The notes under the pieces: generated by a model
Databases searched by the model: none
Told to the model about the DNA's origin: nothing
Seen by the model: only the letters and a program-made list of their open reading frames with translations
Program-made: the position numbers and the translations under genes
Assembly (NCBI GenBank): GCA_018061035.1
Contig: JAGOUX010000004.1
Coordinates: forward strand, 1 to 55,929
Length of the DNA: 55,929 nt
Source of the DNA: Minisyncoccota bacterium
GTDB taxonomy: Bacteria; Patescibacteriota; Minisyncoccia; Phycocordibacterales; UBA9973
Direction: 5' to 3'
Shown: positions 13,391-38,520 of the stretch, one piece after another
Numbering within the stretch: the first letter of the stretch is position 1
How the letters are laid out: every line of letters starts with the position of its first letter

Positions 13391-13412
13391 AAGCCCCTCA
13401 CGGGGCTTTTTC
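13391..13412 (+). terminator. rho-independent terminator after rpsI
   Basis: AAGCCCC-TCAC-GGGGCTT plus T-run. Confidence 0.8.
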
Positions 13413-13497
13413 TTTTGCATTCCTAATATTGACTTTATTACTAATTATGTTATGATTATAACAGATTTTTTCCGCGCTAATTGCGCAAGGAGACTAC

Positions 13498-14058: not shown

Positions 14059-14111
14059 AAATTTCTAATATTTTTTGGACCTGTCCGCCTCTAGCGGGAG
14101 GGGTCTTTTTA

Positions 14112-14126: not shown

Positions 14127-14705
14127 ATGAATGAAGATGAAGAGATAAAAACTAGCACTCCCGAAGAAGCGGAAGATGACGTTGTAGAATTCGAATTTAA
14201 TGACGACGGGGAAGAGGACCTCAAGAAAACTCTCAAGAAGCTTCGTGCTGATTTAAAAGTTGCCAAGAAAGAAAAAGAAGAATACCTCACAGGCTGGCAG
14301 AAGGAGCGGGCGGACTTTGCTAACTACAAAAAACAAGAAGAGAATCAAAAATCTCTTTTCTCAGAAGCAGTGCGCGAGCGAATACTTGGACGGTTTTTGA
14401 GCGTTATGGATAGTTTCAATATGGCCTTTGCCAACAAAGAGGCGTGGGAGAAAGTAGATCCGAATTGGCGCAAAGGAGTGGAGTATATCTACAACCAGAT
14501 GAATACAGTATTCGAGGAATATGGTGTGAAGCCGATAGGAGAAATCGGAGAAAACTTCGATCCAAATATTCATGAATCTATAGATACAGTCCCAACGGAT
14601 AAAAAAGAAGACAATCATAAAGTCGCAGCAATTATCCAGAGAGGATACAAACTAGGAGATAGAGTGATGCGTCCAGCCCGAGTCAACGTATATGAATTCC
14701 GTTAG
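14127..14705 (+). CDS. grpE: nucleotide exchange factor GrpE
   Basis: Acidic N-terminus, coiled-coil region, then FDPNIHESI...GYKLGDRVMRPARV. The start lies 6 nt after TGCTAAAAT. Confidence 0.9.
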   Translation: MNEDEEIKTSTPEEAEDDVVEFEFNDDGEEDLKKTLKKLRADLKVAKKEKEEYLTGWQKERADFANYKKQEENQKSLFSEAVRERILGRFLSVMDSFNMAFANKEAWEKVDPNWRKGVEYIYNQMNTVFEEYGVKPIGEIGENFDPNIHESIDTVPTDKKEDNHKVAAIIQRGYKLGDRVMRPARVNVYEFR

Positions 14706-14718
14706 AGATTAAATAGTT

Positions 14719-14979
14719 ATGTACTACACTTATCTTTTACAAAGCACGAAAAATGGTAAATGGTATACTGGATGTACAAATGATTTAAGGAAACGTTTTA
14801 AGCAGCATAGCGAAAATCGGTCAACATATACAAAAAATAAAGGTCCATGGAAATTAATTTATTATGAAGCATGTTTAAGTAAAGAAGATGCGTTTGCTCG
14901 TGAGAAATGTTTAGCAACTGGTATGGGAATACGCTATCTGAAAAATCGCTTAAAATGTTTCCTATCTCTAACGGAATGA
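14719..14979 (+). CDS. GIY-YIG nuclease family protein (UPF0213-like)
   Basis: YYTYLLQS..GKWYTGCTNDLRKRFKQH. Starts 13 nt after the grpE stop. Confidence 0.8.
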   Translation: MYYTYLLQSTKNGKWYTGCTNDLRKRFKQHSENRSTYTKNKGPWKLIYYEACLSKEDAFAREKCLATGMGIRYLKNRLKCFLSLTE

Positions 14980-16697
14980 GTTCAAAAATTCCTCAAACTA
15001 AAGATTGCGTAAATTGTAAGAATAAATTTGAAATAACATCAGAGGATTTTTCCTTCTACGAAAAAATAAAAGTCCCTCCACCAACTTTCTGTTCTTGGTG
15101 TAGGTTCTTACGCAGACTAGTCTGGCGCAATGAGAGAACTTTGTACAAGCGAAACTGTAGTCTATGTAGTAAAAGCATGATCTCAATGTATTCTGAGAGT
15201 GCACCATTCCCAGTGTATTGTCATGAGTGTTGGTTTAGCGACAAATGGGAAGCAAGCTCATATGGGCGAGATTATGATTTTTCGAAGCCATTTTTCACTC
15301 AATTTAAGGAACTTCAAAACGCTGTTCCTCGATCAGCATTGTGGCAGAGGAATTGCACCAATTCAGAATACGCAAACATGGTGGCAGAGTCTAAAAATGT
15401 GTATCTCTCTGTGTCAGTCACAAATGGCAGCTCGGATGTTTTCTATTCCAAGGCGATTGATGCGTCGTTCAATATTATGGATAGCTATACCCTCAAGAGC
15501 TGTGACTCCTGCTATGAAAATCTTGAAGGTGAGAAGAATTATAATTCTCAAAATCTTGAAAATTGCCGAAACTGTATAGATTCATTTTTTCTAATTGATT
15601 GCACTAATTGCAGTAATTGCTTCATGTCATCAAATTTGCGCAACAAGCAGTATTGTCTTCGCAATCAACAGTACAGCAAAGAAGATTATTTTAAAGAATT
15701 GGAAAAGCTCAATCTCGGCAATAGAAACGAGCGTAAAATACTTATAACTGAATTTCAGGATTTGTGCGAAAGATCTATTCATCGATATGCGAATATAGTT
15801 CAAGCCCAGAATTCTACCGGAAATAATCTTTCCAATGTGAAAAATTGTCAAAATAGCTTTGATGTATATGATGCCGAAAATTATAATTATAGCTTTCGCA
15901 CATATACTTCCAAGGATTGCATGGATTACGATTACGGGCAGTCCTCTGAGCTTATGTATGAGTGTACAACAGGCGCGATGTATGATTCAAATGTAAAATT
16001 TGCATATTCTGCTACTGGCAATGTACGTGATTCGGAATATATCGATTCGTGTGTTAGTGCGACAAATCTCTTTGGTTGCATATGCATCAAGAAAGGAGAA
16101 AATATAATCTTAAACAAACCATACTCTAAGGAAGAATACGAAAAACTTCGGGAGAAAATAATTGCTCACATGAGCGAACTGCCATATATAGATCAAAAGG
16201 GAAGAAGCTATTCATATGGAGAATTTTTCCCAATGGAAGTATCCCCATTTTCATATAATGAAACAATGGCGCAAAACATGGAGCCAATAACAAAAAATGA
16301 GGCATTTGAAAGGGGTTATCCATGGAAGGATGCAGATGAAAAAAATCCCAATATAACAATTGAAACAAATAATATACCGGATAGCATAAACGAAGTAAGT
16401 GAAGAAATATTGTCTGAGGTGCTGGGTTGTGCCCACAAAGGAGAATGCAATCAACAATGCGCTGTGGGATTTCGTATTACTCAAGGAGAATTGCAATTTT
16501 ACAAGAAGTACAATATTCCACTTCCTGATCTTTGTCCAAATTGTAGATTTTATGAGCGATCCAAGAAGGTTTTGCAACCCAAACTCTATGATAGGACATG
16601 CATGAAGTGCAATGAGATAAAATTCAAGACCCCATATGCTCCTGGTAGACCAGAAATAATCTATTGTGAATCTTGCTATAATAAAGAAATATATTAA
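14976..16697 (+). CDS. Cys-rich zinc-ribbon-capped protein, paralogue 1 (unknown function)
   Basis: The ATG at 14976 overlaps the GIY-YIG stop (ATGA). CxxC modules sit at the N- and C-termini and the protein ends YCESCYNKEIY. Paralogous to 18522..20192 and 20192..21922. Confidence 0.75.
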   Translation: MSSKIPQTKDCVNCKNKFEITSEDFSFYEKIKVPPPTFCSWCRFLRRLVWRNERTLYKRNCSLCSKSMISMYSESAPFPVYCHECWFSDKWEASSYGRDYDFSKPFFTQFKELQNAVPRSALWQRNCTNSEYANMVAESKNVYLSVSVTNGSSDVFYSKAIDASFNIMDSYTLKSCDSCYENLEGEKNYNSQNLENCRNCIDSFFLIDCTNCSNCFMSSNLRNKQYCLRNQQYSKEDYFKELEKLNLGNRNERKILITEFQDLCERSIHRYANIVQAQNSTGNNLSNVKNCQNSFDVYDAENYNYSFRTYTSKDCMDYDYGQSSELMYECTTGAMYDSNVKFAYSATGNVRDSEYIDSCVSATNLFGCICIKKGENIILNKPYSKEEYEKLREKIIAHMSELPYIDQKGRSYSYGEFFPMEVSPFSYNETMAQNMEPITKNEAFERGYPWKDADEKNPNITIETNNIPDSINEVSEEILSEVLGCAHKGECNQQCAVGFRITQGELQFYKKYNIPLPDLCPNCRFYERSKKVLQPKLYDRTCMKCNEIKFKTPYAPGRPEIIYCESCYNKEIY

Positions 16698-16699
16698 TC

Positions 16700-18532
16700 A
16701 TGGTGACCGATATAAAACAAAAGAATACATACTTTTCTTGGCTGGATGTGTCTAAGTCCATTTGGTATTTCTTAGAAGAAGACAAAAAGAAATTTATTTT
16801 TGCATTTATTGTTCTTACTCTCGGTTTCTTCTATGATCTTGTTCCAATATATGTTGTTGGTAAAATAGTAGATTTTTTCTCTACCTATCAAGCTGGAGAT
16901 TCTCTGAGGACTTTTTATCTTCTTATTATATTTCTGAGCGTAAGCTGGACACTGGTCTTAATGACTCGAGACAGGATGCGAACAGTAATACAAATAATCG
17001 GAGAAAATGCTCGTACCAAGGCTCGTACATACGGTTTTCAGCGTTTAACAGAGTTTTCTCTTGAATGGCATCAAAAGGAGAATACAGGCAATAAGTTGCA
17101 GAGAATTTTTACAGGTTCTGACTCTATCACCAGATGGATGAGGATATTACGAAGTGATTTGATAAAAATCTTTGCAGATATTGTTGGTGCGGCAGTATTT
17201 TTTGCTTTCACCGATTATAAATTTATTCTTGTTGTTTTGTTCTATGCAATAATTTATCTATATGTGGAATTCTATTTTAGTAACAAGCTTATGGCTTTAA
17301 GTGATGAATTCAACACACATAACCAAAACGCCGGAGGAACATACATAGAATCTGCGAATAACATGCTTGCGATAAAGGCACTAGGAAGCGAAAAAGGTGC
17401 CATTGCTAGAGTGGCCGAAAGAGAAAAGTTGTCTAGAGATACAGCAGCGAAGAAAGTTCGAGTGCAGACTTCTCAGTGGAAACTTTTACATATTTTAATG
17501 GGTCTTTCTCTATTATTATTTTTGTATTTTATTGGACTATCTGTTTTGTCTGGTCAAATTACCATAGGGCTAGTTTTGGTTTTGTTTACTTATTTTTCTA
17601 AACTACAATCTTCTTTGGCGAATGTGTCGAGTAAGCATATGGAAATCATTGATCTTCGTTCCGACCTAGGTAACATGATGCCTATATTTAAGGAAACTGA
17701 ATTAATCAAGACTGGCAATAATTCTTTCCCAAAAAATTGGGATAAGATAGAGATCAAGAATGCAGTAATGGATTACGGGTCAGGGCAAATGGGGCTTAAA
17801 GACTTCAGTCTTACATTAGAGAGAGGCACCAAGACAGGAGTAGCTGGATTGTCGGGAAGCGGAAAGTCTACTTTGGCTAAAATAATTTTAGGACTATACG
17901 CCCTTAAGGAAGGTAAATTCAAGGTCGGGAATCAAAGTTATTACAATATTTCACACAACGAAACTCTAAATAATATCACTGTGGTTCTACAGGAAACAGA
18001 GCTCTTCAATCTGTCGCTTAAAGACAATATTACTATGATGCGAGGTGAAGACATTGAGCTTTTGAATCAGGCAATAGAAATTTCTCAGCTAAAAGAAGTT
18101 ATAAACAAATTACCTGATGGACTCAATTCTATGGTAGGCGAGAAGGGCTATATGCTCTCTGGTGGAGAGCGTCAGAGGCTTGGTATTGCTCGAGCAATAT
18201 ACAAGAATTCTCCTATCATCATTCTAGATGAAGCTACTTCTTCTTTGGATTCTGAAACAGAAGGCAAGGTTATGGAGAAGCTCCTTGGTGCCTATGGGAA
18301 AGGCAAGACTTTCCTAATAATTGCTCACCGTTTAGGTACGCTCAAATATACAGACAATATTGCAGTGATGGAAGATGGGAGGGTTTTAGAGGAGGGGAAT
18401 TATGATGAGCTAATGAACAACAAAGATTCTATATTTTGTAGAATGAATTCCGTTAGAATCCGTGAAGGCTTGGAACGTGCTTCTGCCTCTAATGGAATGA
18501 ACAAAGTACAGAAGAAAAAAGATGGAAACTAA
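16700..18532 (+). CDS. ABC transporter, fused permease/ATPase (type I exporter-like)
   Basis: N-terminal half has multiple TM helices. Walker A GLSGSGKST, signature LSGGERQR, Walker B IIILDEATS. Confidence 0.9.
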   Translation: MVTDIKQKNTYFSWLDVSKSIWYFLEEDKKKFIFAFIVLTLGFFYDLVPIYVVGKIVDFFSTYQAGDSLRTFYLLIIFLSVSWTLVLMTRDRMRTVIQIIGENARTKARTYGFQRLTEFSLEWHQKENTGNKLQRIFTGSDSITRWMRILRSDLIKIFADIVGAAVFFAFTDYKFILVVLFYAIIYLYVEFYFSNKLMALSDEFNTHNQNAGGTYIESANNMLAIKALGSEKGAIARVAEREKLSRDTAAKKVRVQTSQWKLLHILMGLSLLLFLYFIGLSVLSGQITIGLVLVLFTYFSKLQSSLANVSSKHMEIIDLRSDLGNMMPIFKETELIKTGNNSFPKNWDKIEIKNAVMDYGSGQMGLKDFSLTLERGTKTGVAGLSGSGKSTLAKIILGLYALKEGKFKVGNQSYYNISHNETLNNITVVLQETELFNLSLKDNITMMRGEDIELLNQAIEISQLKEVINKLPDGLNSMVGEKGYMLSGGERQRLGIARAIYKNSPIIILDEATSSLDSETEGKVMEKLLGAYGKGKTFLIIAHRLGTLKYTDNIAVMEDGRVLEEGNYDELMNNKDSIFCRMNSVRIREGLERASASNGMNKVQKKKDGN

Positions 18533-20192
18533 AAACTGCCAAAATTGCAAACAGGACTTTGAGATCACAAGCAGTGATAAGTCTTACTATCAAAAAATAG
18601 GAGTTTTAATCCCAAAGATTTGCCCAGATTGTCGAGCGCAGTTAAGACTTTCTTTTCGGAATGAAAGATTTCTGTATAAGCGGAAGTGTGATAATTGCCA
18701 GAAGGACACAATCTCTGTATACAGTCCAAATAAAACTTTTCCGGCTTGGTGTCACGATTGTTGGTGGAGTGATGACTTGAATGGTCAAAGCTTCGGAGTT
18801 GAGTATGATTTCAATAAACCGTTTTTCGACCAACTAAACGATTTATTTAAAAAGGTTCCTAAACCAGCAATTATTGGTAGTAATAATGTTAATTCTAACT
18901 ATGTAAATCTAGTAGCAGATAGTAAAAACTGTTATATGATTGTAGAAAGTTCCAATAATGAAAATTGCATTAATTGCTATTGGATACAGCTATCAAAGGA
19001 TCTAGTTGATTGCTCCTTCACCAACAAAGTCGAGCTATCATATGACGTTGATGACTGCTATGATTCAAGTAATTTAAAATTTTCGAAGGGTTGTTATAGT
19101 TGTCTCGATGGTTCATTTTTAATAGATTGCCGTGGTTGCACGAATTGTGTGGGGTGTATTAATTTACGTCAGCAAAGTTACTGTATTTTCAATAAGCAGT
19201 ATTCCAAGGAAGAATATTTTGAAAAACTTAAGTCATATAGGCTGGATACTCATTCTGGGATAGAAGCATTCAAGAAGGACTTCTCTCAGTTTACCAAAGA
19301 CAAACCTAGAAAGTTTGCAGAAATAACCAATGGGGTAAACTCAACAGGGAACTATATGACCAATGTTAAGAATAATAAGCAATGCTTCCACTCATACGAG
19401 GCAGAGGATAATTCATATTGTGTTCATGCTTGGCGTGGAGCAAAGGATTGTATGGACTCAAGTACTGTAGGAAGAGGAGCCGAACTCATATACAACAGTA
19501 TAAATATGGGTATGCAGGTGTCTAATGTAATTGCTGGCTATCATTGCTGGGGTTCTCAGTTTATGGAGTATTGTCTCAATTGTCCTAATTCAAATAATTG
19601 TTTTGGCTGCGTAGGTTTGAAGAAAAGTTCCTACTGTATTTTCAATAAACAATATACAAAGGAAGACTATTTTATATTGAAGGATAAGATAATTAGTGCA
19701 ATGAAGGAGTCTGGGATATATGGAGATTTCTTTCCGAAAAATATGTCGCCTCTCGGATATAATGAATCCTCTGCTCTAGATGAATTTCCATTAACGAAAG
19801 AGCAGGCAAGGGCTGATGGTTTCGCTTGGGAAGATATGGAAAGGGGAATATACGGCAAGGAAAATATTGACTGGAATACATTTCCTGACTCGACAAGGGA
19901 GCTGCCCGAAGACTTCAATGTTCATGAGTCGGTCTTTTGTTGCTTAAGCTGTAGTAAGAATTATCGGATCATTGATGATGAGTTTACCTTTTATAAAAGA
20001 ATGGAATTACCATTTCCTCGTACTTGTCCTGAGTGCCGGCACGTTGCTCGCTTTGTAGCCCGAGGACCAAATAAGCTGTGGCATCGTAACTGCATGAACG
20101 AAGGCTGTCAAAACGAATTTGAGACATCATACTCTCCAGAGAGGACTGAGATTGTTTATTGTGAAAGTTGTTACAACAAAGAAATCTACTAA
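18522..20192 (+). CDS. Cys-rich zinc-ribbon-capped protein, paralogue 2
   Basis: The start overlaps the ABC gene by 11 nt. Architecture matches paralogue 1. Confidence 0.8.
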   Translation: METKNCQNCKQDFEITSSDKSYYQKIGVLIPKICPDCRAQLRLSFRNERFLYKRKCDNCQKDTISVYSPNKTFPAWCHDCWWSDDLNGQSFGVEYDFNKPFFDQLNDLFKKVPKPAIIGSNNVNSNYVNLVADSKNCYMIVESSNNENCINCYWIQLSKDLVDCSFTNKVELSYDVDDCYDSSNLKFSKGCYSCLDGSFLIDCRGCTNCVGCINLRQQSYCIFNKQYSKEEYFEKLKSYRLDTHSGIEAFKKDFSQFTKDKPRKFAEITNGVNSTGNYMTNVKNNKQCFHSYEAEDNSYCVHAWRGAKDCMDSSTVGRGAELIYNSINMGMQVSNVIAGYHCWGSQFMEYCLNCPNSNNCFGCVGLKKSSYCIFNKQYTKEDYFILKDKIISAMKESGIYGDFFPKNMSPLGYNESSALDEFPLTKEQARADGFAWEDMERGIYGKENIDWNTFPDSTRELPEDFNVHESVFCCLSCSKNYRIIDDEFTFYKRMELPFPRTCPECRHVARFVARGPNKLWHRNCMNEGCQNEFETSYSPERTEIVYCESCYNKEIY

Positions 20193-21922
20193 TGGAAACA
20201 AAAAACTGCCAAAATTGTAAGAAAGATTTTGAGATTACACAGGATGACTTTTCTTTCTACGAGAGGATTAGTGTACCGCCGCCTACATTTTGTCCGCATT
20301 GCCGAAGCCAGCGCAGGATGGTTTGGAGGAATGAATATAAATTATTCAAGAAAAAGGACGCCCATACTGGTAAGGAGATATTTTCTCAATACCATTCGGA
20401 CTCACCGCTACAAATATATTCAAATGAATTTTGGATGAGTGATGGTTGGGATCCAATGGATTATGGTAGAGATTACGATTTTTCGAAGTCGTTCTTTCCT
20501 CAGTTTCGGGATTTACTTTACGCTGTTCCAGCAAAAGCTCGTAGTTTGAGCAATGAGATCAACTCAGAATATTGCAATAATGCTGACGATCTAAAAAATT
20601 GCTACCTCTGTTTTAATGCCATCATGTTACAGGATTGTGCATATACTATCCAGGTTGCACGCCTTCGTAATTGTTTTGATCTTACATGCTCTACAAGCTC
20701 TGAGAATTGTTATGATTCAATCAACATTACTGATAGTAGTTTAGTGCAGTCTTCTATTGATTGTGCCATGGGCCTTGATCTATTTTTTTGTGCAGATTGC
20801 CGTAACTGTAGTAATTGCGTGGGCTGTGTCGGTCTTCGGAGCAAGAGCTACTGTATTTTCAATGTCCAATATTCCAAGGAGGAATACCAGGAAAAATTTG
20901 CAAGCCTCAACCTTGATTCGCATCTCGGTCGGCAAGCTGTAAAGGCCAAGATGCTAGAGATATATTTTGCAAAACCACACAAATACATGCACACCATGAA
21001 AAGTGTTGATTCCTCGGGTGATTATATTTTTGGTTCTAAGAATACAAAGCAATCATGGGTCACGATGAAAGCTGAGAATGTAAAATATGCACAAGATACT
21101 AGATACACCAAAGATGCCTACGATACTCTGGTATCCTGGAAAGCAGAGGATGCTTATGAGGGCGCATGTATTGGCTTGGGTTCATCCACAATCAGGTTCG
21201 TATTCCAAAGCTTCCCAGGGATTTTTGATGTCAGCTATTCTGCATTTTGTTCAGATTGTTCACATTGCTTTGGTTGTGTAGGTTTACGATACAAAGAATA
21301 TTGTATTTTCAACAAGCAATACACCAAGGAGGAATACAATGCTTTGGTGCCAAAAATAATCGAGCAGATGAAGACTGTGGAGTATATCAACCCGCAAGGG
21401 CATCGTTATGCATACGGAGAATTTTTTCCACCGGAGTTTTCGCCACTAGCTTACAATGACACGATCGCAAGCGACCACTACCCACTAACTGAAGAGGAGA
21501 TAAAATCAGGAGGCTTTATAACTAGGCAAGGTAGCACTCGGGATTATGCACCCACACTCAGATCAGATGATATACCAGATAAGATTGAAAATGTTTCTGA
21601 ATCAATATTGAACCAGATAATTGAATGCGAGGATAAAGGTGTTTGTGTGCACGATTGCACCAAGGCTTTCCGCATTACTGCAGAAGAATTGGCATTTTAT
21701 AAGAAGATGAATATACCTCCGCCGCACAAGTGCCCTAATTGCCGCCTTAAAGCACGACTAGTATTTAGAGGGGGATTGCATTACTTCACGCGTGAGTGCA
21801 TGTGCGATAAAGCTGGCCACGACCACACCGATAAGTGTCAAAACAAATTCGAAACGAGCTACCACCCAGATGGGCTCGAGATTGTTTATTGTGAAAGTTG
21901 CTACAACAAAGAAGTATATTAA
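20192..21922 (+). CDS. Cys-rich zinc-ribbon-capped protein, paralogue 3 (second N-terminal knuckle degenerate)
   Basis: The ATG at 20192 shares one base with the TAA of paralogue 2. METKNCQNCKKDFEIT closely matches the paralogue 2 N-terminus. Confidence 0.8.
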   Translation: METKNCQNCKKDFEITQDDFSFYERISVPPPTFCPHCRSQRRMVWRNEYKLFKKKDAHTGKEIFSQYHSDSPLQIYSNEFWMSDGWDPMDYGRDYDFSKSFFPQFRDLLYAVPAKARSLSNEINSEYCNNADDLKNCYLCFNAIMLQDCAYTIQVARLRNCFDLTCSTSSENCYDSINITDSSLVQSSIDCAMGLDLFFCADCRNCSNCVGCVGLRSKSYCIFNVQYSKEEYQEKFASLNLDSHLGRQAVKAKMLEIYFAKPHKYMHTMKSVDSSGDYIFGSKNTKQSWVTMKAENVKYAQDTRYTKDAYDTLVSWKAEDAYEGACIGLGSSTIRFVFQSFPGIFDVSYSAFCSDCSHCFGCVGLRYKEYCIFNKQYTKEEYNALVPKIIEQMKTVEYINPQGHRYAYGEFFPPEFSPLAYNDTIASDHYPLTEEEIKSGGFITRQGSTRDYAPTLRSDDIPDKIENVSESILNQIIECEDKGVCVHDCTKAFRITAEELAFYKKMNIPPPHKCPNCRLKARLVFRGGLHYFTRECMCDKAGHDHTDKCQNKFETSYHPDGLEIVYCESCYNKEVY

Positions 21923-21930
21923 TCACTAGA

Positions 21931-21958
21931 CACATCAGCGTACTAGTATGCTGATGTG
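21931..21958. other. 28-bp near-palindrome/hairpin after Cys-rich paralogue 3
   Basis: CACATCAGC-GTACTAGTAT-GCTGATGTG. The core AGCGTACTAGTATG resembles AGCATACTAGTATG at 47709-47722. Confidence 0.6.
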
Positions 21959-22025
21959 GGGAATGGCAAATAGGTGTGAGAGGGGTAGGTTTGGACTTTG
22001 TGTTGCTGTGATATATAATTTCCCT

Positions 22026-23033
22026 ATGTCATTAGAAAATCAGATAGGTAATAGAGATAATATTCCCGCAAAAACGACCATTGAGCAGATGGCATCTGCA
22101 AATACTTATGAGCAGTTGCTAGATTGTTGGGCTGGTTTAGTTGGGACTTTAGACAAAGATCTAGTAGAAAACTGGGGAACTTTAGAATTTAACATTAAAA
22201 ACTTATATAGCACTTTTTCCAAACCCCCGTTTGCCTGTGATGGTATTGCCAAAAATATTTTTGAGAATGAAGATTTATTAAGTAAGGCAGCTGAAATGAA
22301 AATTCCGAAAGAGTTCCTTTTGCAGACAGTCAGAGTAGGTGCTGTAAAAGATTTGCAATCTAGGATCGAGAAGAGCTCCAAGGAGCCAGTGCGGCTTTAT
22401 CCTGATGGTACTGTGTCGCGTGTGTTTCGCGAAGAGGTTGAGTTGGGAAAATTGGAGAACCAAGATGAAGAGATAAAAAGGTTGCGCAATCTTTTGTCAA
22501 AAGTAATGGATACACCCAACATGGATGGTTTTACTTGGGCAAATAATGAAATTAAGGAAATTTCTGACACAAAAAGGAAAGAGCAAGCTGGTGCTGTCGA
22601 GGAAAGAAATATTCAAAATGAGAAGTCAAAGGAGGATGCAATTCGTAATATTGGAGAACAGATGCATACACCAGAATATCATTTATCAAAGGCGCAAGCA
22701 GATCTTTTAAGAGAGGATTTCGCTAATAAATTACACCTATGGAAGGGAATTTTAGAAAATTCTGAATCAGGTGAGTTGAGGGCATATTTAGACTCTTTTT
22801 TGGAAAAAGATGAAGACACAGAATTAACACCAGAGTTTTTTGAGAATTTCAAAAGATTTTATCAAGCATATTTAGATTCACACCCCAATATTTCAGGCAG
22901 GTCTACTTTGCCTTTGGAAATAATTGATCCAAGCTCTGGCTGGTTTTCAGCAGTTTTAATAAACAAACAAACAAATTTAAGAAATTTCGTAACCTCTATA
23001 TACGGAAATATGGGGCAGTGGTTTCAGTTATAA
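22026..23033 (+). CDS. hypothetical protein (acidic/Lys-rich)
   Basis: ATG 22026 lies 6 nt after TATAAT (22014-22019), which fits the leaderless pattern. No family recognised. Confidence 0.5.
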   Translation: MSLENQIGNRDNIPAKTTIEQMASANTYEQLLDCWAGLVGTLDKDLVENWGTLEFNIKNLYSTFSKPPFACDGIAKNIFENEDLLSKAAEMKIPKEFLLQTVRVGAVKDLQSRIEKSSKEPVRLYPDGTVSRVFREEVELGKLENQDEEIKRLRNLLSKVMDTPNMDGFTWANNEIKEISDTKRKEQAGAVEERNIQNEKSKEDAIRNIGEQMHTPEYHLSKAQADLLREDFANKLHLWKGILENSESGELRAYLDSFLEKDEDTELTPEFFENFKRFYQAYLDSHPNISGRSTLPLEIIDPSSGWFSAVLINKQTNLRNFVTSIYGNMGQWFQL

Positions 23034-23139: not shown

Positions 23140-23670
23140 CTACTTATTGAAACTTTGAAGGAATATATCCTTCGAAATCTCGTCCACATTATCTGTGGTT
23201 ATTATTATCATCTCTGTGGTGAGGCCGAGGTCTTTTTTGATGTTGGTGAAGAGGTGCTCGAAAGGGAACGGTGAGATCCATGCAGAATTCTTGAGGCAGA
23301 CGAAGCCTGCTTTTTTGAGAAGGTAGCGGAGGCTTTCGCGCTCGGCTTTACGAGCTTCCGGTAGGTCGAGGAGGATGATTCTCCATAGGCCGTCCCAGGA
23401 GGTGTTGACCATGGCTGTGTCGCTATCTAGGGCTAGGCTGTGGACCTTCTTTTTGCCTTCTTTGGTCAGGCGGGCGTATTGATTTTGAGGGGAGGCCACT
23501 TGCTCTATCAGACCAGCATCCCGAAGGCCTTTTAATGAGCGTGTAATGGCGTACTTGGGGTTCTTTTGGTCAGAATGAGTATTGACCTTATCAGCCAATT
23601 CAGGCAGGGAAATGGCCTGTTTTTGGCCCAGTACGCGTAATATTTTTTTTGAATAATCGTTGTTTTTCAT
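23140..23670 (-). CDS. winged-helix regulator with PaaX-C-like domain (tentative)
   Basis: N-terminal wHTH-like segment (ISLPELADKV...ITRSLKGLRDAGLIE). C-terminal WDGLWRIILLDLPE..R..LRYLLKKAGF..L..SAWISP resembles the PaaX family. Confidence 0.45.
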   Translation of the reverse strand: MKNNDYSKKILRVLGQKQAISLPELADKVNTHSDQKNPKYAITRSLKGLRDAGLIEQVASPQNQYARLTKEGKKKVHSLALDSDTAMVNTSWDGLWRIILLDLPEARKAERESLRYLLKKAGFVCLKNSAWISPFPFEHLFTNIKKDLGLTTEMIIITTDNVDEISKDIFLQSFNK

Positions 23671-23683
23671 CGTTCTTACTTGG

Positions 23684-24007: not shown

Positions 24008-25903
24008 ATGTCAAAAATCATAGGTATAGACTTGGGTACAACAAATTCTGCCGTCGCTGTCATCGAAGGTGGACAACCAAAAATTATAGAAAATATCGAA
24101 GGTGCGCGTACTACTCCGAGTATCGTATCTGTCGCTAAAAATGGAGATCGATTAGTCGGCCTCCTCGCAAAGCGTCAGGCTGTGACCAACCCAGAAAATA
24201 CTGTGTACGGTATCAAGCGCTTCATGGGCCACAACTTTGAAGATCCAGAAGTTCAGAAGGACCTCAAAAACGCGTCTTTCAAAATCCAGAAATCTGCAAA
24301 CGGCGGAGTGGAAGTAAAGATTGGCGACAAGTGGATGCGCCCAGAAGAAATCTCTGCGATGATCTTGGGTAAGATCAAGGCTGATGTGGAAGCAAAGCTC
24401 GGAGAGAAAATCACCGAAGCAGTCATCACTGTGCCTGCATACTTCAACGATGCACAGCGTAAAGCTACCAAGGATGCCGGCGCTATTGCAGGCCTTGATG
24501 TAAAAAGAATAATCAACGAGCCTACAGCTGCAGCTCTAGCGTACGGATTTAACAAAAAGAAAAATGAGAAGATTGTAGTGTACGACTTTGGAGGCGGTAC
24601 TTTCGATGTATCAGTTCTTGAAATAGGTGACGATGTTATTGAAGTAAAGTCTACAGATGGCGACAGCCACCTTGGAGGCCGCGATATAGACCACAAGATC
24701 ATTGCTTGGATCGCCGAAGAATTCAAAAAGATTTCTGGTGTAGATGTCCGCAACGACAAGCTCGCTCTTCAACGTCTAGATGAAGCTGCAGAAAAAGCAA
24801 AGATTGAACTTTCTACTTCAGTTGAAACAGAAATAAATATTCCATTCATCACTTCTACTGCAGAGGGTCCTCAACACCTTCTCCTCAAGATGAACCGCGC
24901 TCAGCTCGAAGGTATTGCAGACGAATATATTGCAAGGTCTATCGAGATCACCAAGCGCGCTATGGTTGCTTCCGGATTCAAGATGGAAGATATGAATGAG
25001 ATCATCATGGTGGGAGGTCAGACCAGAATGCCAAAGATCGTGGAAGAAGTGAAGAAAGTATTCGGCAAGACTCCAAACCTTTCTATCAATCCAGACGAAG
25101 TGGTAGCCCTCGGTGCTGCGGTGCAGGCCGGAGTGCTCCAGGGAGATGTGCGTGATGTGCTCCTTCTCGACGTCATCCCATTATCTCTCGGTATCGAGAC
25201 TTTGGGTGGCGTAGCTACCAAGCTCGTAGAGAGAAACACCACTATCCCTTCAAACAAATCCCAAGTGTTCTCAACTGCTGCGGACAATCAGACCAGTGTG
25301 GAAATTCACATCGTGCAGGGTGAGCGCCCAATGGCGAGCGACAACAAATCTCTCGGAAGATTTATCCTCGACGGCGTACCACCAGCACCTCGCGGAGTTC
25401 CGCAAGTCGAAGTGTCTTTCGATGTAGATGCCAACGGTATTCTAAATGTCACTGCCAAGGAAAAGAGCTCTGGTAAGACTCAGTCTATCCGCATCGAAGC
25501 AAGCTCTGGCCTCAAGGAAGAAGATATCAAGAAGATGCAGGCAGATGCAGAAGTTCATGCAGAAGAAGACAAGAAGAAGAAAGAAGTAGTAGATATGAAG
25601 AACAATGCCGAGATGATTCTCTACACCGCCGAAAAAGCTTTGAAAGACGGAGGTGACAAAGTCCCTGCAGATGTGAAGACCAATGTGGAAGCAAAGATCA
25701 CAGCTCTCAAGGGCGTGAAAGATGGCACCGATGGCGACGCGATCAAGAAGGCGACAGAAGAGCTATCTTCTGAAATGTCCAAGATTGGTGAGGCTATGAG
25801 CAAAGCCGCGCCAGCGGGCGAAGCCCCAGGCGCGGCACCAGAAGGTGCAGCCGAAGCGGAAGTAAAAGAAAAACCAGCCGAAGGCGAAGAACCAAAGGCT
25901 TAA
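24008..25903 (+). CDS. dnaK: molecular chaperone DnaK (Hsp70)
   Basis: [20 protein letters not shown], and full-length Hsp70. Confidence 0.97.
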
Positions 25904-32808: not shown

Positions 32809-35034
32809 ATGGAACTTCCTGATCTTCCAGTAAATAGAGATCTTACATATCTCGGTATAACAACATACCGAGACAAAAACCAACTTTTTGGTATTAAGAG
32901 AAAAGATAGAAGACAGCACGTCTATGTGCTTGGTAAATCTGGTACGGGTAAATCTGTGCTCATGTTCAACATGATCATTCAGAACATCAACAATGGCGAA
33001 GGTGTTTGTGTGGTAGATCCGCACGGTGAGCTAGTCGAAGGAGTACTCTCTGCTATTCCTCCACATCGTCTCAAGGATGTAATATATTTCAATCCTGCTG
33101 ATACTGACTATCACATCGGGTTCAACGTGCTTGAACTCATGGATCCGCAGTACAAGCACCTTGTCGCCTCTGGTCTGATGGGTATATTCACCAAGATTTG
33201 GGCGAATGCATGGTCTGCTCGAATGGAATACATTTTGAACAACACCATTCTGGCACTACTAGATACTCCGGGTACAACACTTCTCGGTATTCCTCGAATG
33301 CTCGTAGACAAGGATTACCGTCAGAAAATAATTGGCAATCTAAAAGATCCGGTGATCAAGGCATTCTGGGTGCACGAATACGAAGCCTGGCAGGATAAAT
33401 TCCGAAACGAAGCCATTGCGCCGATTCAGAACAAGGTGGGACAATTCCTCTCGACCTCTATCATTCGTAATGTCGTGGGCCAGGAGAAGAGTACTATTAA
33501 TATTTTCGACATCATGAACGAAGGAAAAATATTCCTGGTGAACGTGTCGAAGGGACGTATCGGTGAAGACAACTCTTCGCTTCTCGGAGGTATGATCATT
33601 ACCAAGGTTCAGCTTGCAGCCATGGAGCGCGTGCGAATACCCGAGGAGAATCGAAAAGACTTCTACCTATACGTGGACGAGTTCCAAAACTTCGTGACCG
33701 ATGCATTTGCGAGCATTCTTTCTGAAGCCCGCAAATACCGTCTCAACCTAACTGTGGCGCACCAGTATACTGCTCAGCTTATTTCAGACAAGAGCTCTGC
33801 TGTTCGTGACGCAGTCTTCGGCAACGTGGGAACTATGATTATTTTCCGTGTAGGCTCTGATGATGCAGACTTCCTAGAAAAGGAATTTGATCCTGAATTT
33901 ACTCCCGGCGACATTGTGAATTTGCCGAACTATAAAATATATTTGAAACTCATGATCGATGGTGTGACGTCTCGACCATTTTCTGCGAAAACTTTACCAC
34001 CGCTTGCAAAGAGTGGTAATAAAGAAATTGAGAATGAAGTTATAAATTCATCACGCAAATTGTATTGTAAACCCAAAGAATGGGTAGAAGACCAAATTAA
34101 TCGCTGGAGTGGAATGTCTCTCGGAGATATTGATAATAGTGGCGGATCACAGGGTGGATCGAGTGGGTATGCATCTGGAAGTAGCAGTAGTGGAAATGGA
34201 GCATTCGAGAAATTCCCAGCTATATGCTCACTATGCAAAAAAGAAACTACTGTGCCGTTCAAGCCTGAGCCAGGCCGAGCAGTGTATTGTAAGGAATGCG
34301 TAGCGAAAATTAAATCAGGAGAGGTGAAGGTGGAAAAGGGTGCAGAGAACCAAGTGCGCTATGATGATTCGAAATTCTACAAACCTCTCGCTGATCTCGG
34401 TATTGAATTCGCTCCCAAAAATTCACAGGAAAATTCTAGCAACATAGAAGAGAACAGGCATCCTGAGAGATCAAATAAATCTGGTCCACATCCAGAGCAT
34501 CCTGAAGCTCGAAAGGGTGGATTACTCTCTGCAATAAAAAAGGCAGTTGTCGGACCTAGTCCCATGAAGGCCAAAGAGAACCCTGCTCTTAAGGAAATAA
34601 TTTCTAAAACTATGAGTGGTGAGATTGCTCCTGCTGTGTCTCGGGTTCCAAGAACCGAATTTACTAATTCGACCCCACCTGCAATATCTTTGAGCGCTCT
34701 TAAGGATAAGCCAAAGGAAGTGGTGGTGAATTCCAAGGACAGAGCTGCAAGCGCAGATGATATGAATAAATTGAAGGATCTGATACAAAAGGCAGAGAAA
34801 GCTCCTGTGACCCCGGAACCGAAAAAGGAAGAAGTTAAACCTATTCCAGTAGTTGCTCCACAACCAAAAGTAGAAGTAACATTGCCTCCGAAGCCTCCAG
34901 TCGTATCAGCTCCGAAAGTCGAAATACCTCTACCTCCCAAGCCGCCTATCAGCTCCACAACACCTCCGTCTCCACAAAATCTACCAATCAAAGAGGTGCC
35001 TGAAGAAGTGCTTAAGAAAATATTGGAACAGTAA
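32809..35034 (+). CDS. TraD/VirD4/TrwB-like P-loop ATPase with low-complexity tail and CxxC-x17-CxxC zinc ribbon
   Basis: Walker A GKSGTGKS, Walker B FYLYVDEFQNF, ARKYRLNLTVAHQ. The tail has CSLCKKETTVPFKPEPGRAVYCKEC followed by a Pro/Lys-rich region. Confidence 0.7.
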   Translation: MELPDLPVNRDLTYLGITTYRDKNQLFGIKRKDRRQHVYVLGKSGTGKSVLMFNMIIQNINNGEGVCVVDPHGELVEGVLSAIPPHRLKDVIYFNPADTDYHIGFNVLELMDPQYKHLVASGLMGIFTKIWANAWSARMEYILNNTILALLDTPGTTLLGIPRMLVDKDYRQKIIGNLKDPVIKAFWVHEYEAWQDKFRNEAIAPIQNKVGQFLSTSIIRNVVGQEKSTINIFDIMNEGKIFLVNVSKGRIGEDNSSLLGGMIITKVQLAAMERVRIPEENRKDFYLYVDEFQNFVTDAFASILSEARKYRLNLTVAHQYTAQLISDKSSAVRDAVFGNVGTMIIFRVGSDDADFLEKEFDPEFTPGDIVNLPNYKIYLKLMIDGVTSRPFSAKTLPPLAKSGNKEIENEVINSSRKLYCKPKEWVEDQINRWSGMSLGDIDNSGGSQGGSSGYASGSSSSGNGAFEKFPAICSLCKKETTVPFKPEPGRAVYCKECVAKIKSGEVKVEKGAENQVRYDDSKFYKPLADLGIEFAPKNSQENSSNIEENRHPERSNKSGPHPEHPEARKGGLLSAIKKAVVGPSPMKAKENPALKEIISKTMSGEIAPAVSRVPRTEFTNSTPPAISLSALKDKPKEVVVNSKDRAASADDMNKLKDLIQKAEKAPVTPEPKKEEVKPIPVVAPQPKVEVTLPPKPPVVSAPKVEIPLPPKPPISSTTPPSPQNLPIKEVPEEVLKKILEQ

Positions 35035-35834: not shown

Positions 35835-37286
35835 ATGCCGAAACCTAATCGAGTTCAAATAATAAAATATGGTCCGCCACCGCCAGAACTTCCTGTCTTC
35901 GGAAAAGTAAAACCAGAAGACGTGTCTTTCATCGGGCGTACTAACTACGTGGCATCTCTCGAAGAAAAGAAATTTATTTTCGGTATTAAGCGCGTGGACC
36001 GTCGTCGTCATCTATACATCATCGGTAAATCTGGAGTTGGTAAGACCAAGCTCCTCGAGCTCTTCCTAAGACAGGACGTGTCCTATGGTCATGGTCTCTG
36101 TCTTATCGACCCGCACGGAGATGTCATCGACGCCATGCTCGACTATATTCCGAGAGAGCGTATCGAAGATGTGTGTATCATTGATCCGGCAGACATAGAC
36201 TTCCCGGCATCTTTCAATCCTCTTGCAAATGTGGATCCGATGTTTAAATTTCAGCTCACTCAAGGACTGATCGAAGTCTTCCAGAAGCAGTTCGGTGCGA
36301 ACTGGACGCCTCGTCTCGAGCACGTTTTTCGATTTACTTGTTTGGCACTGCTCGACTATCCACACGCGACAATGCGTGGAATGATCTCAATGCTCACAGA
36401 CAGAAACTATCGTCAAAAAGTGGTGGAATATATCACTGATGACATGGTCAAAAGATTCTTCGCTATCGAATTCGCCGACTGGTCAGAAAAATTCGATACT
36501 GATGCGATCATTCCGCTTGTGAACAAGCTCGGACAATTCCTTTCTGATCCACTTCTTCGCAATATCTTCGGACAAAAGGAGAACAAGATTGATATTTCGA
36601 AACTAATGAATAGCCAGAAGATAATATTCATCAATCTCTCGAAGGGTCGCCTCGGTGAAGAGAACTCTTCTTTCCTGGGGTCTATGTTCTTGACTAAGAT
36701 CAAGCAGGCAGGAATGGAACGCGCATCTATGCCCGAGAGCGCTCGTAAAGATTTCTACATATATGTGGACGAGTTCCAAAATGTGGTCACCCAGACATTC
36801 GAAAATATTCTCTCTGAAGCGCGCAAGTACGGACTCAATCTAACAATGGCGCACCAATACGTGGGGCAGATCATACCGAAGGTCTATCAAGCAGTGCTCG
36901 GAAATGTGGGATCGGTAATATCCTTCCGTATAGGAGGCGAGGACGCAGTTAGACTTAAGCCAGAATTCTCACCACTATTCGATGTGAAAGATATGATCAA
37001 CCTCGCGGTCACAGAATTCTATGTGAAGATGACTATCGATGGTGAATCCTATGATCCGTTCTCTGCAGAAACTCTCCGAGTTCTGCCACCAACCCATCCA
37101 TCGTACAGAGAGGAGATTATCGAAGCTTCACGCAGAAAATATTCTATTCCAAAAGACGCTGCTCAGAGACTGATTGCAGAAGAAGAGTCGACTATTATTC
37201 GTAGCGCGGAGGAAAAAGCTATTATCGAAGGTAAAGGCCGAGGCGAGGACAAACCAAAGGTTCAGGAAGCTGAGCCGATGATATAA
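35835..37286 (+). CDS. TraD/VirD4/TrwB-like P-loop ATPase, paralogue 2 (no tail)
   Basis: GKSGVGKT, FYIYVDEFQNV, ARKYGLNLTMAHQ. Collinear with 32809..35034. Confidence 0.7.
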   Translation: MPKPNRVQIIKYGPPPPELPVFGKVKPEDVSFIGRTNYVASLEEKKFIFGIKRVDRRRHLYIIGKSGVGKTKLLELFLRQDVSYGHGLCLIDPHGDVIDAMLDYIPRERIEDVCIIDPADIDFPASFNPLANVDPMFKFQLTQGLIEVFQKQFGANWTPRLEHVFRFTCLALLDYPHATMRGMISMLTDRNYRQKVVEYITDDMVKRFFAIEFADWSEKFDTDAIIPLVNKLGQFLSDPLLRNIFGQKENKIDISKLMNSQKIIFINLSKGRLGEENSSFLGSMFLTKIKQAGMERASMPESARKDFYIYVDEFQNVVTQTFENILSEARKYGLNLTMAHQYVGQIIPKVYQAVLGNVGSVISFRIGGEDAVRLKPEFSPLFDVKDMINLAVTEFYVKMTIDGESYDPFSAETLRVLPPTHPSYREEIIEASRRKYSIPKDAAQRLIAEEESTIIRSAEEKAIIEGKGRGEDKPKVQEAEPMI

Positions 37287-37434: not shown

Positions 37435-38520
37435 ATGGCAAAGGATTATTACGAAATACTCGGTGTAAATAAGGGCGCGACAAAGGAGGAAATTAAAAAA
37501 GCCTTCTATAGGCTCGCGCACAAGCATCATCCAGATAAAAAAGAGGGAAATGAGGCTAAATTTAAAGAAGTAAACGAAGCTTATCAAGTGCTCTCAGATG
37601 AGGCAAAACGTTCAAAATACGATCAATTTGGGGCCGGATTTGAAAATATGTCTGGTGGATACGGAGGCGGGGCTCAGGGCGGATTCGAAGGCTTCGACTT
37701 CTCAGGATTCCAAAATGGCGGAGCTGATTTTGATTTCGGTAATCTCAACGATATTTTTAGTGACTTTTTCGGAGGTGGTGGAGGTAGAGCTCAGACACGT
37801 AGGGGACGAGATATTTCTACAGAAATTCAGATATCTTTTTCTGAATCAGTATTTGGTATCGAGCGAAAGATTTTAATAACAAAAATGTCGTCATGTTTGA
37901 TCTGTAAGGGCTCAGGCGCGAAGACTGGCAGTAAGATGGAGACATGTAAAACCTGTAATGGCCAAGGCAAGATCCATGAAGCCAAGAGAACAATATTCGG
38001 AACTATCTCAAATACAAAAGTTTGTGATCATTGCCATGGTTCAGGCGAAGTACCAAAAGAGCCATGCGATACATGTAAGGGCAAAGGAGTACTAAGACGT
38101 GAAGAAGAGATTGCTCTCAATATTCCCGCAGGTATTCGTGATGGTGAAATGGTGCGCATGACCGGGCATGGTGAAGCGGTATCAAGGGGAACCACTGGAG
38201 ATCTATATATCAAGATCAATGTTGCCCCACATCCAGTATTCAAGCGAGATGGCCATGATCTAGTAATGAACCTCAATATCAAGCTCTCTGATGCACTTTT
38301 GGGTACAAAGTATCCAATCGAAACTCTTGATGGGGAAATAGAAGTTACTATTCCTGAAGGCGTAACTATTAATGAAATATTGCGAGTAAAAGGCAAGGGT
38401 GTGCCAGTCTCAAAAGGCAAAAGAGGCGACCTGTTGATCAAACTAAATATCAAACTACCGACAAAGATCTCAAAGAAATCTAAAGAGCTGATCGAAAAGC
38501 TAAAGGAGGAGGGAATATAA
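37435..38520 (+). CDS. dnaJ: molecular chaperone DnaJ
   Basis: J domain (KDYYEILGV...HPDK), G/F region, and four CxxCxGxG repeats. Confidence 0.95.
   Translation: MAKDYYEILGVNKGATKEEIKKAFYRLAHKHHPDKKEGNEAKFKEVNEAYQVLSDEAKRSKYDQFGAGFENMSGGYGGGAQGGFEGFDFSGFQNGGADFDFGNLNDIFSDFFGGGGGRAQTRRGRDISTEIQISFSESVFGIERKILITKMSSCLICKGSGAKTGSKMETCKTCNGQGKIHEAKRTIFGTISNTKVCDHCHGSGEVPKEPCDTCKGKGVLRREEEIALNIPAGIRDGEMVRMTGHGEAVSRGTTGDLYIKINVAPHPVFKRDGHDLVMNLNIKLSDALLGTKYPIETLDGEIEVTIPEGVTINEILRVKGKGVPVSKGKRGDLLIKLNIKLPTKISKKSKELIEKLKEEGI

Follow-up and report, generated by a model that had tools for sequence, protein, structure and literature searches.

The 55.9 kb stretch of Minisyncoccota bacterium DNA analysed here, which we call the window and to which all coordinates refer unless a strain or locus is named, carries three genes for large Cys-rich paralogues that we give the working label Par (ParA, ParB and ParC). 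They lie in a block of six genes that opens with grpE and also encodes an ABC exporter. The Par proteins represent an ancient, multi-copy family that was seen here in Parcubacteria/Paceibacteria only. Their genes show tight, non-random linkage to orphan VirD4-like ATPases, to one orthogroup of ABC exporters, and to Hsp70 genes. This recurring gene context points to a cellular machine that has not yet been described. The block is made up as follows:

14127..14705, + strand: grpE, the first gene of the block, encoding the Hsp70 nucleotide-exchange factor (Pfam GrpE, 4e-39)
14719-14979, + strand: GIY-YIG nuclease gene, 86 aa (Pfam GIY-YIG, 1e-15)
14976..16697, + strand: ParA, Cys-rich paralogue 1, 573 aa, 33 Cys
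16700..18532, + strand: ABC exporter, a half-transporter with a transmembrane domain (TMD) and a nucleotide-binding domain (Pfam matches to ABC_membrane and ABC_tran)
18522..20192, + strand: ParB, Cys-rich paralogue 2, 556 aa, 38 Cys
20192..21922, + strand: ParC, Cys-rich paralogue 3, 576 aa, 34 Cys, with a degenerate second N-terminal finger
21931..21958, + strand: palindrome 3' of ParC, 28 nt, no T-run, bordering an indel that carries a gene we call unk361

A preliminary description of this DNA had presented the block as six translationally coupled or nearly coupled genes, and the coordinates of the six same-strand open reading frames (ORFs) bear out the junctions it gave: a 13-nt gap between grpE and the GIY-YIG gene, an ATGA overlap between the GIY-YIG gene and ParA, a 2-nt gap between ParA and the ABC gene, an 11-nt overlap between the ABC gene and ParB, and a 1-nt overlap between ParB and ParC. 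The start of ParA was placed at the ATG that aligns with its homologues (573 aa; 596 aa from an upstream ATG), and ParC was taken as 576 aa (584 aa from an upstream TTG). Promoter-like matches inside the block, where the description had seen no internal promoter, are at chance level (32 found, 28.7 expected). Other parts of the description had to be revised. The hairpin at 21931-21958, which it had read as a terminator, is a 14+14-nt palindrome (-17.7 kcal/mol, z=-2.8); no T-run follows it, so it does not qualify as a canonical intrinsic terminator. The element is retained by a sister strain and borders an indel. Nor are the six genes one fixed functional unit, because the GIY-YIG gene is a mobile cassette and the ABC gene is absent from a 98%-identical strain. 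Finally, the boundary of the operon was misdrawn: the commonest partners of Par genes, which are two VirD4/TraG-like ATPases, dnaK, dnaJ and a PaaX-like regulator, lie outside 14127-21958.

ParA, ParB and ParC are mutually 40-41% identical over their full length and are built from internal duplications. In ParB, residues 6-81 (N-terminal module) and 474-551 (C-terminal module) match each other at E=2e-16, as do a first internal repeat, R1 (101-235), and a second, R2 (250-385), at E=2e-23. The resulting plan is a double finger, R1, R2, an acidic linker of ~70 aa, and another double finger, which in ParB is distributed as follows:

18522-18797, + strand: ParB N-terminal double finger, aa 1-92
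18798-19241, + strand: ParB R1, aa 93-240
19242-19715, + strand: ParB R2, aa 241-398
19716-19925, + strand: ParB acidic linker, aa 399-468
19926-20189, + strand: ParB C-terminal double finger, aa 469-556

The preliminary description had assigned all three proteins one architecture and quoted a set of Cys motifs for it. The motifs are present, and the architecture is shared with two qualifications: ParC lacks all four Cys of the second N-terminal finger, and in the C-terminal module only ParA has CxxC as its third Cys pair, which is Cx4C in ParB and longer in ParC. Each Par protein has ~35 Cys, which comprise four predicted Cys4 sites and a variable set of core Cys. Across 345 diverse members of the family, the Cys of the first N-terminal finger and of the whole C-terminal module are kept in 83-99% (the terminal fingers begin at residue 6, and C6/C9 and C34/C37 are kept in 97-99%), those of the second N-terminal finger are kept in ~57%, and the core Cys are partly conserved. 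The CxxC-x17-CxxC spacing, which starts at residue 61 in ParA and residue 56 in ParB and is absent from ParC, occurs in 260 of these members. A recurrent core motif is CxxCxxCxxC (213/345); the 4Fe-4S ferredoxin motif CxxCxxCxxxC(P) was found in only two. Outside the Cys positions, the most conserved stretch is YGEFFP..SPF.YNET.A...FPL, immediately C-terminal to R2, and the extreme C-terminus is very conserved as well. A mean net charge of +2.4 and +5.4 makes the zf_Tbcl-type fingers basic, and conserved Arg residues lie on the helix that follows their second CxxC; the linker is acidic (-6.6), as is the whole protein (-4.9). None of ParA, ParB and ParC has a Walker A motif. As had been noted before, no Par protein has a signal peptide, and none has a hydrophobic segment (maximum KD19 <=1.2). 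The Par proteins are soluble, and because they have neither a transmembrane segment nor a signal peptide, we read them as cytoplasmic. Comparison with the 98%-identical strain gave dN/dS of 0.06 for ParB and 0.15 for ParC; the Par genes are under functional constraint, that is, purifying selection.

The proteins had not been recognised earlier as members of a characterised family, and this assessment held. The core has no Pfam or NCBIfam match at all, scans of the whole proteins gave nothing above threshold in either database, and a PADLOC scan gave no match to a defence system; we attribute Med15_N matches, seen in 8 of 78 members, to composition. Relatives retrieved by a word-indexed search number more than 6,800; all the named ones among them are called “hypothetical protein”, and nearly all the named sources are Paceibacteria, Nomurabacteria, Staskawiczbacteria or the Patescibacteria group. 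An exhaustive profile search against 1.84 billion cluster representatives yielded 5,080 clusters (50% identity clusters) at E<=1e-3 and 2,097 at E<=1e-30. Nearly all of the best 150 clusters are full-length at 540-600 aa, the length of Par proteins is uniform (median 575 aa, interquartile range 564-590), and among the ORFs of the fetched loci no Par ORF is fused to another domain. ParB has more than 100 orthologue clusters at 55-72% identity, with more than 50 clusters of ParB-type homologues at ~70%, and the closest species-representative homologue of ParA is 60% identical. The best 80 species-representative loci all come from Parcubacteria-type metagenome-assembled genomes (Nomura-, Lipton-, Giovannoni- and Staskawicz-bacteria, RAAC4_OD1); some are nominally “Saccharibacteria” by a generic label, and several of these show the same gene order. 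Some genomes hold at least 10-12 Par genes spread over several loci. We found no description of the Par family or of the locus described below in the literature that we searched, which left out most subscription journals, and a metatranscriptome paper on Paceibacteria (PMC10936435) does not mention the family. In kind, both the family and the locus fall outside any characterised family or system.

The nearest known counterparts of the terminal modules are small zinc fingers. With zf_Tbcl, zf_Tbcl_2 and TIGR04272 the Par modules share the spacing CxxC-x24-CxxC followed by CxxC-x17-CxxC and a predicted treble-clef fold (knuckle plus helix). Those fingers, however, are small and stand alone or are appended to other proteins, whereas in Par they cap a protein of ~570 aa with a family-less core of 300 aa. 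The zf_Tbcl model (PF13451; cutoff 24 bits) gave 18.0 bits for the N-terminal module of ParB and 18.1 bits for the C-terminal module of ParC, and did not match ParA; its cutoff is passed by some homologues (P0092, 30.5 bits; P0117, 28.4 bits), and 22 of 78 members match at E<0.01, while the Par proteins of the window fall under all thresholds. For zf_Tbcl_2 (PF23477; cutoff 27 bits) the best score in the family was 26.5 bits (P0053), with E<0.01 in 6 of 78 members, and the NCBIfam model of the CxxC-x17-CxxC domain, TIGR04272 (cutoff 36 bits), matched no Par protein. Like the LIM domains of CRP1 and CRP2, the Par module is a tandem double zinc finger of ~55 residues that ends in ...YC..CY and probably serves protein-protein interaction. 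The best sequence or profile match in the PDB was between the C-terminal module and the LIM domain of CRP1, at a marginal E=0.005. The ligands differ, being C4+C4 in Par and CCHC+CCC(C/H/D) in LIM, and ParB scores below the Pfam cutoff (PF00412, 19.7 bits against 22.9), with matches in 4 of 78 members. The likeness is probably convergent or due to generic features of treble clefs. By analogy, it is reasonable to suppose that the Par caps bind zinc, because small Methanosarcina proteins harbouring a CxxC-x17-CxxC domain have been shown to do so by inductively coupled plasma mass spectrometry (PMC12704099).

Structure models are in keeping with this domain plan. An AlphaFold2 (AF2) model of full-length ParB, built from 122 sequences, had a predicted local distance difference test (pLDDT) score of 83.6 and a predicted TM-score of 0.86, which suggests one compact unit; the termini are confident and the core has a pLDDT of 65-72. 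The first finger of this model has strands at 2-5 and 12-15 and helices at 17-26 and 35-43, with a helix starting at the second Cys pair, as in a treble clef. A core-only AF2 model from a more diverse alignment reached a pLDDT of 81.7 overall and ~80-96 across most of both repeats. In this model each repeat is formed by strands of 8-10 residues joined by 2-residue turns, with a period of ~12 residues, and closes with a Cys cluster and a helix. The core is thus modelled as a duplicated all-beta structure of ~12-residue hairpin repeats, solenoid- or meander-like. A fold search of AF2 models, which the preliminary description had proposed as a check, returned no significant Foldseek match, either for the full-length model (PDB and BFVD) or for the core (PDB). 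The best weak matches of the core are all beta-helix or solenoid proteins (E>=1e-3, TM-score <=0.18), among them secreted or surface proteins such as adhesins, an autotransporter and tailspikes. Pectate-lyase-like proteins, pentapeptide-repeat proteins and TibA share with the modelled core a repeat-built all-beta character, but the Par core is predicted to be a hairpin meander with a period of ~12 and they have three-sided coils. These matches indicate a “repeat-built all-beta” structure and carry no information on homology.

The block forms one end of a larger chaperone superlocus, whose other genes in the window are:

23140..23670, - strand: PaaX-like winged helix-turn-helix regulator (PaaX_M, 3.5e-19), divergent from dnaK
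24008..25903, + strand: dnaK (Hsp70; HSP70, 4.9e-243)
32809..35034, + strand: T4CPzf, a soluble VirD4/TraG-like ATPase (TrwB_AAD_bind, DUF87, TraG-D_C, zf_Tbcl_2)
35835..37286, + strand: T4CP2, a second soluble VirD4/TrwB-like ATPase, always just 5' of dnaJ
37435..38520, + strand: dnaJ (DnaJ, DnaJ_C, DnaJ_CXXCXGXG)
38522..39094, + strand: unk190, a polytopic membrane protein with no family match (maximum KD19 2.47), syntenic in at least 10 loci

The same order recurs in many species and can be written as rpsI-grpE-Par(n)-PaaX(-)-dnaK-ATPase-Par(n)-[rsmE(-)]-ATPase-dnaJ-membrane protein, the window having rsmE on the minus strand between T4CPzf and T4CP2. In other Parcubacteria, rpsI is directly followed by grpE, and grpE directly by Par genes. 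To describe Par neighbourhoods more generally, we clustered all neighbours in the 80 species-representative loci without bias. These loci contain 220 Par genes, 1-9 per 20 kb, of which 217 lie on the strand of the query match, and the median gap between Par genes is 17.5 nt. VirD4-like ATPases are the top neighbour family (34 genes in 26 of the 80 loci, 23 of them directly adjacent), followed by DnaK (15 loci), the PaaX-like regulator (12), DnaJ (10) and the ABC exporter (7). The preliminary description had considered that the linkage to grpE might be unique to this genome. It is not, as a Par gene directly follows grpE in all five loci that contain grpE. Away from the chaperone locus, too, Par arrays are flanked by VirD4-like ATPases, as in the locus L003.

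The two ATPases resemble type IV coupling proteins (VirD4, TraG, TrwB) in their P-loop ATPase family and in the TrwB all-alpha DNA-binding domain that they carry, and they show a weak match to the DNA-translocating ATPase CedD. They differ from coupling proteins in having no N-terminal membrane anchor (neither has a transmembrane segment; maximum KD19 1.13-1.18), in their position between dnaK and dnaJ, and in having no virB genes or relaxase alongside. The window contains no virB4-sized gene, in that it has no other ORF of at least 650 aa, and NCBIfam TraD/VirD4 equivalog matches to the ATPases were all far under cutoff. T4CPzf carries a bona fide CxxC-x17-CxxC finger (TIGR04272, 47.8 bits; cutoff 36 bits) as well as a long, disordered tail rich in Lys and Pro, and is ~70-80% identical across 120 clusters. 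We had considered that Par and T4CPzf might share this finger; hhalign gave a probability of 2% with no match in the finger, and the idea was downgraded to a shared Cys spacing only. Four orthologues of the finger-bearing ATPase (L109-L112) gave a view centred on the ATPases. All four have the backbone grpE...PaaX(-)-dnaK-ATPase...ATPase-dnaJ, with the PaaX-like gene in the same position, and two of them have Par genes, one with an ABC gene after grpE. The arrangement dnaK-ATPase-ATPase-dnaJ is seen in L109-L112, L005, L010, L072 and L075, even where Par genes are absent there. In the two Par-less loci, grpE is followed by a gene for CutA1 (L110 5528-5833; L112 4924-5229), a divalent-cation tolerance protein, whose presence in this slot may be a coincidence or a hint of a link to metals. 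Orphan homologues of coupling proteins inside an Hsp70 operon appear to be undescribed so far. A survey of Patescibacteria counted 5,713 VirD4 homologues, only 148 of them near virB4, and concluded that exaptation cannot be ruled out (PMC12102498).

The ABC protein has a type I exporter fold, with its TMD from about residue 32 and no N-terminal peptidase (C39) or CLD domain. Its matches to NCBIfam equivalogs (MsbA, HlyB, CydDC and bacteriocin exporters) are all far under their cutoffs, HlyB (TIGR01846) for example at 216 bits against 725, so that only its fold class is known. We asked if its linkage to Par is seen when Par plays no part in the search, and used the ABC protein as the sole query against metagenomes. 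Of the 21 orthologues found (58-69% identity), 18 have an adjacent Par gene; the ABC linkage, like that of grpE, is therefore not peculiar to this genome. Their usual order is ATPase-ABC-Par-ATPase-dnaJ, and one locus (L096) has grpE-Par-ABC-Par-Par, as in the window. Often the ABC gene overlaps the Par gene that follows it or is separated from it by no more than ~50 nt, and two species-representative orthologues (71-72% identity) are also found in Par arrays, at different positions in the superlocus. The idea that the Par gene 3' of the ABC gene belongs to an orthologous, ABC-coupled subfamily was rejected, the median identity being 41% in every class. The ABC gene is best described as an optional though specific member of the system. 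There are likenesses to type I secretion (RTX/HlyB), as Par proteins lack a leader, consist of repeats, are all-beta and have a conserved C-terminus, and their genes stand beside an ABC exporter. The differences are that the RTX motif GGxGxD is found in none of the 345 members, that there is no outer-membrane partner and no gene for a membrane-fusion protein among the neighbour families or the called genes, that the ABC protein has no C39 or CLD domain, that the fingers are of a cytoplasmic type, and that most Par genes have no ABC gene next to them.

Comparison with L006, the 98%-identical strain that we used as a close reference, separates the conserved parts of the locus from the mobile ones, two of which are in the window:

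14696..14977, + strand: mobile cassette, the GIY-YIG gene between 14-nt inverted repeats
21962..23033, + strand: unk361 insertion, strain-specific, 1,072 bp, with a 361-aa acidic ORF

The inverted repeats of the cassette are ATTCCGTTAGAGAT at 14696-14709 and ATCTCTAACGGAAT at 14964-14977. Their arms, (A)TCCCGTTAGAGAT and ATCTCTAACGGGA(T), measure 13-14 nt, and the core 13-mer, expected 1.2 times in the window, was found 8 times; copies also lie at 12047-12059 and 44683-44695. L006 has a homologous GIY-YIG gene with the same repeats at a different site (about 9150-9460), a third species has a GIY-YIG gene with other flanking repeats, and a GIY-YIG gene is near Par in only 5 of 86 loci. Because of the inverted repeats and the different site in L006, we regard the GIY-YIG gene as a mobile cassette; it is not a conserved partner. 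An “empty” hairpin at 23684-23733, consisting of two repeat arms and a 24-nt spacer, abuts the -35 box of the best promoter-like site of dnaK (TTGACA-18-TATATT, 23734-23763). We considered the 13-nt palindrome 5' of dnaK as an operator and rejected this, given that the same repeats flank the GIY-YIG gene and that the intergenic region between the PaaX-like gene and dnaK is ~40-100 nt elsewhere; it is more likely a relic resembling a miniature inverted-repeat transposable element (MITE). Altogether the repeats look like a system of a small GIY-YIG mobile cassette and MITE-like relics that has moved between 98%-identical strains.

The ABC gene also marks a precise indel. L006 lacks 16704-18525 (1,822 bp), which in the window is bounded by ATGG direct repeats: the junction reads TAATC-ATGG-AAACT in L006 and TAATC-ATGG[...1,822 bp...]ATGG-AAACT in the window. 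As a consequence, the ABC ORF uses the former start of ParB, which accounts for the 11-nt overlap. Likewise, 21962-23033 is absent from L006, which has 42 nt instead, and starts directly 3' of the palindrome at 21931-21958. unk361 has no homologue in any fetched locus and no family match in Pfam, NCBIfam or PADLOC, and the insertion lies outside the conserved system. The two strains share 98% identity in ParB and ParC. In L006 the gene 5' of ParB has ~68% nucleotide identity to ParA, with the final 46 nt at 100% (window 16107-16703, L006 345-971), a pattern that suggests cassette-like exchange of Par genes by recombination at conserved 3' ends.

How might these parts work together? The stress-, metal-, redox- or export-linked roles suggested by the preliminary description are guesswork so far. 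Our tentative reading, which could well prove wrong, makes the Par proteins adaptors or scaffolds: cytoplasmic subunits, stabilised by zinc, of a lineage-specific module of ATPases and exporter in the Hsp70 locus. Under this reading, each Par protein would act as a bivalent adaptor, with tandems of LIM-like Cys4 fingers at both ends of an all-beta core. The module would consist of two soluble VirD4-like ring ATPases for ATP-driven handling or export, joined in a subset of lineages, this one included, by a dedicated MsbA-type ABC exporter. Its place within the heat-shock locus grpE-dnaK-dnaJ would mean that the module is expressed together with the Hsp70 system, and the diverged Par paralogues would supply different specificities for partners or clients. 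That Par proteins contact the ATPases, the exporter or DnaK, and that they serve as adaptors, is what we infer. We favour subunits over bulk cargo because the fingers are of a cytoplasmic type, because the genes are translationally coupled with those of the ABC exporter and the ATPases, and because the paralogues are ancient and conserved; the near-1:1 coupling of ABC and Par genes likewise fits subunits of a complex better than bulk cargo. Several observations weigh against this reading. The core fold has no informative match, hhalign lends no support to a finger shared by Par and the ATPase, and the ABC gene is dispensable in L006. No dnaK lies within 10 kb of the Par array in 65 of the 80 loci, and some arrays adjoin unrelated genes (mraY, ftsW, murG). 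Two of the four loci centred on the ATPase have the backbone with no Par gene in the superlocus, so the ATPases need no Par gene in cis. Finally, the Par genes beside ABC genes are not mutually orthologous, their median identity being equal to that of other Par pairs.

The Par proteins could instead be the cargo, which we consider unlikely. They would be leaderless substrates, held export-competent by DnaK/DnaJ/GrpE, recognised or unfolded by the VirD4-like ATPases, and exported via the ABC protein in a type-I-like manner or via a Patescibacteria type IV secretion system (T4SS) encoded elsewhere, perhaps as surface or host-directed proteins of an epibiont. Tandem Par arrays do adjoin translocation-type ATPases and an exporter, the combination of no signal peptide with a conserved extreme C-terminus would suit such substrates, and the only (weak) fold matches of the repeat-built core are beta-helix proteins, several of them secreted or surface-exposed. 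Patescibacteria also have thousands of orphan VirD4 homologues and T4SS that are unlinked to relaxases (PMC12102498). Against this, proteins with Cys4 zinc fingers at either end are typically cytoplasmic, the ATPases lack a membrane anchor and the window lacks a virB4-sized gene, and neither the RTX motif in Par nor a C39 or CLD domain in the ABC protein was found. Strong purifying selection, with ~70% identity among the more than 50 ParB-type clusters, would be unusual for surface or effector proteins, and the ABC gene is absent from most Par arrays. A broader version, which we rate as distinctly improbable, is that Par, the two anchorless ATPases, the ABC exporter and DnaK/DnaJ/GrpE together form an unrecognised chaperone-coupled translocation system, in which Par proteins would be leaderless cargo or effectors, or cargo-specific adaptors, delivered outside the cell and possibly into hosts. 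If true, this would give a role to thousands of orphan VirD4 homologues of Patescibacteria, and organisms with genomes of 0.6-1 Mb would have a protein fold and a secretion logic that are both new. It is also possible, though again unlikely, that there is no functional coupling at all. The positions behind grpE and behind the first ATPase would then simply be permissive hot-spots of insertion or recombination in a strongly expressed locus; Par would be a cytoplasmic family that is expanding and has some unrelated role, with the ABC and GIY-YIG genes as passengers. The content of the grpE slot does vary by genome (Par, ABC, CutA1, GIY-YIG), 98%-identical strains differ by the ABC, unk361 and GIY-YIG indels and by the replacement of ParA with a 68%-identical allele that has a 100%-identical 3' end, the Par neighbours of ABC genes are not orthologous, and many Par arrays lie elsewhere in the genome. 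Against this, ABC orthologues retrieved without reference to Par adjoin it in 18 of 21 loci and at different superlocus positions, VirD4-like ATPases accompany Par arrays outside the chaperone locus as in L003, and the orientation is uniform, with very short or overlapping junctions.

Two further alternatives take the fingers as their starting point. VirD4/TrwB-like motors are DNA-dependent translocases in conjugation, and the basic treble-clef fingers of Par, with their conserved Arg, might hold DNA or RNA for such motors, in a system that might process DNA taken up by nucleotide-auxotrophic cells of the candidate phyla radiation. The TrwB all-alpha domain of the ATPases and their weak similarity to CedD agree with this proposal, which we nevertheless find very doubtful: the whole protein is acidic and the linker strongly so, the conserved partners DnaK, DnaJ and GrpE handle proteins, and the fetched contexts hold no conserved relaxase or other conserved nuclease, the sole nearby nuclease being the mobile GIY-YIG cassette. 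More doubtful still is a redox or zinc-switch holdase in the style of Hsp33, in which oxidation would free zinc from the Cys4 sites and expose client surfaces, with clients passed to DnaK/DnaJ/GrpE on recovery. The large number of Cys in each protein, with four predicted Cys4 sites and variable core Cys, and the position of the genes inside the Hsp70 locus, directly 3' of grpE, would fit; Hsp33 and the Cys-rich domain of DnaJ are also Cys4-zinc proteins linked to the Hsp70 system. Par proteins, though, have no similarity to either in sequence, motif or fold: no Pfam match to the zinc domains of Hsp33 or DnaJ was found, CxxCxGxG occurs in only 8 of 345 members, and the Hsp33-like spacing CxCx(27-32)CxxC occurs by chance only, in Cys-rich stretches. 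Such a holdase would also leave the ATPases, the ABC exporter and the need for 3-12 paralogues unexplained.

Parcubacteria/Paceibacteria are among the most abundant uncultivated bacteria and have tiny genomes, some of which spend 10-12 genes of ~1.7 kb, ~2% of the genome, on the Par family. With the family, its domain plan and its conserved partners now defined, a set of “hypothetical proteins” becomes a testable system. The role of orphan VirD4-like ATPases is an explicit open question in the literature on Patescibacteria T4SS (PMC12102498), and the dnaK-ATPase-ATPase-dnaJ arrangement with its Par and ABC satellites provides a concrete context for the question of VirD4 exaptation.

Some features of the window bear on how the locus may be expressed. 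No CIRCE element was found in the window with up to 3 mismatches allowed. The PaaX-like protein, which has a Cas2-like central domain, occupies the position of HrcA, divergent from dnaK, and is a candidate for these bacteria's heat-shock regulator. Between its gene and dnaK, the intergenic region (23671-24007) is 337 nt long here, longer than in other species. Directly 3' of dnaK, at 25963-26997, is a gene for a small RelA/SpoT-domain protein, a putative small alarmone synthetase, that is not in most other loci. The whole 55.9 kb contain no tRNA gene and no Rfam family at the gathering threshold. A terminator-like hairpin at 14087-14104 ends just 22 nt 5' of the grpE start, and the grpE mRNA may be leaderless. 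The distance from rpsI to grpE is 740 nt here, against ~50-190 nt in other Parcubacteria, and the extra DNA contains a hydrophobic 144-aa ORF with no family (13498-13932), a good terminator 3' of rpsI (13391-13408) and a promoter-like site (13429-13456).

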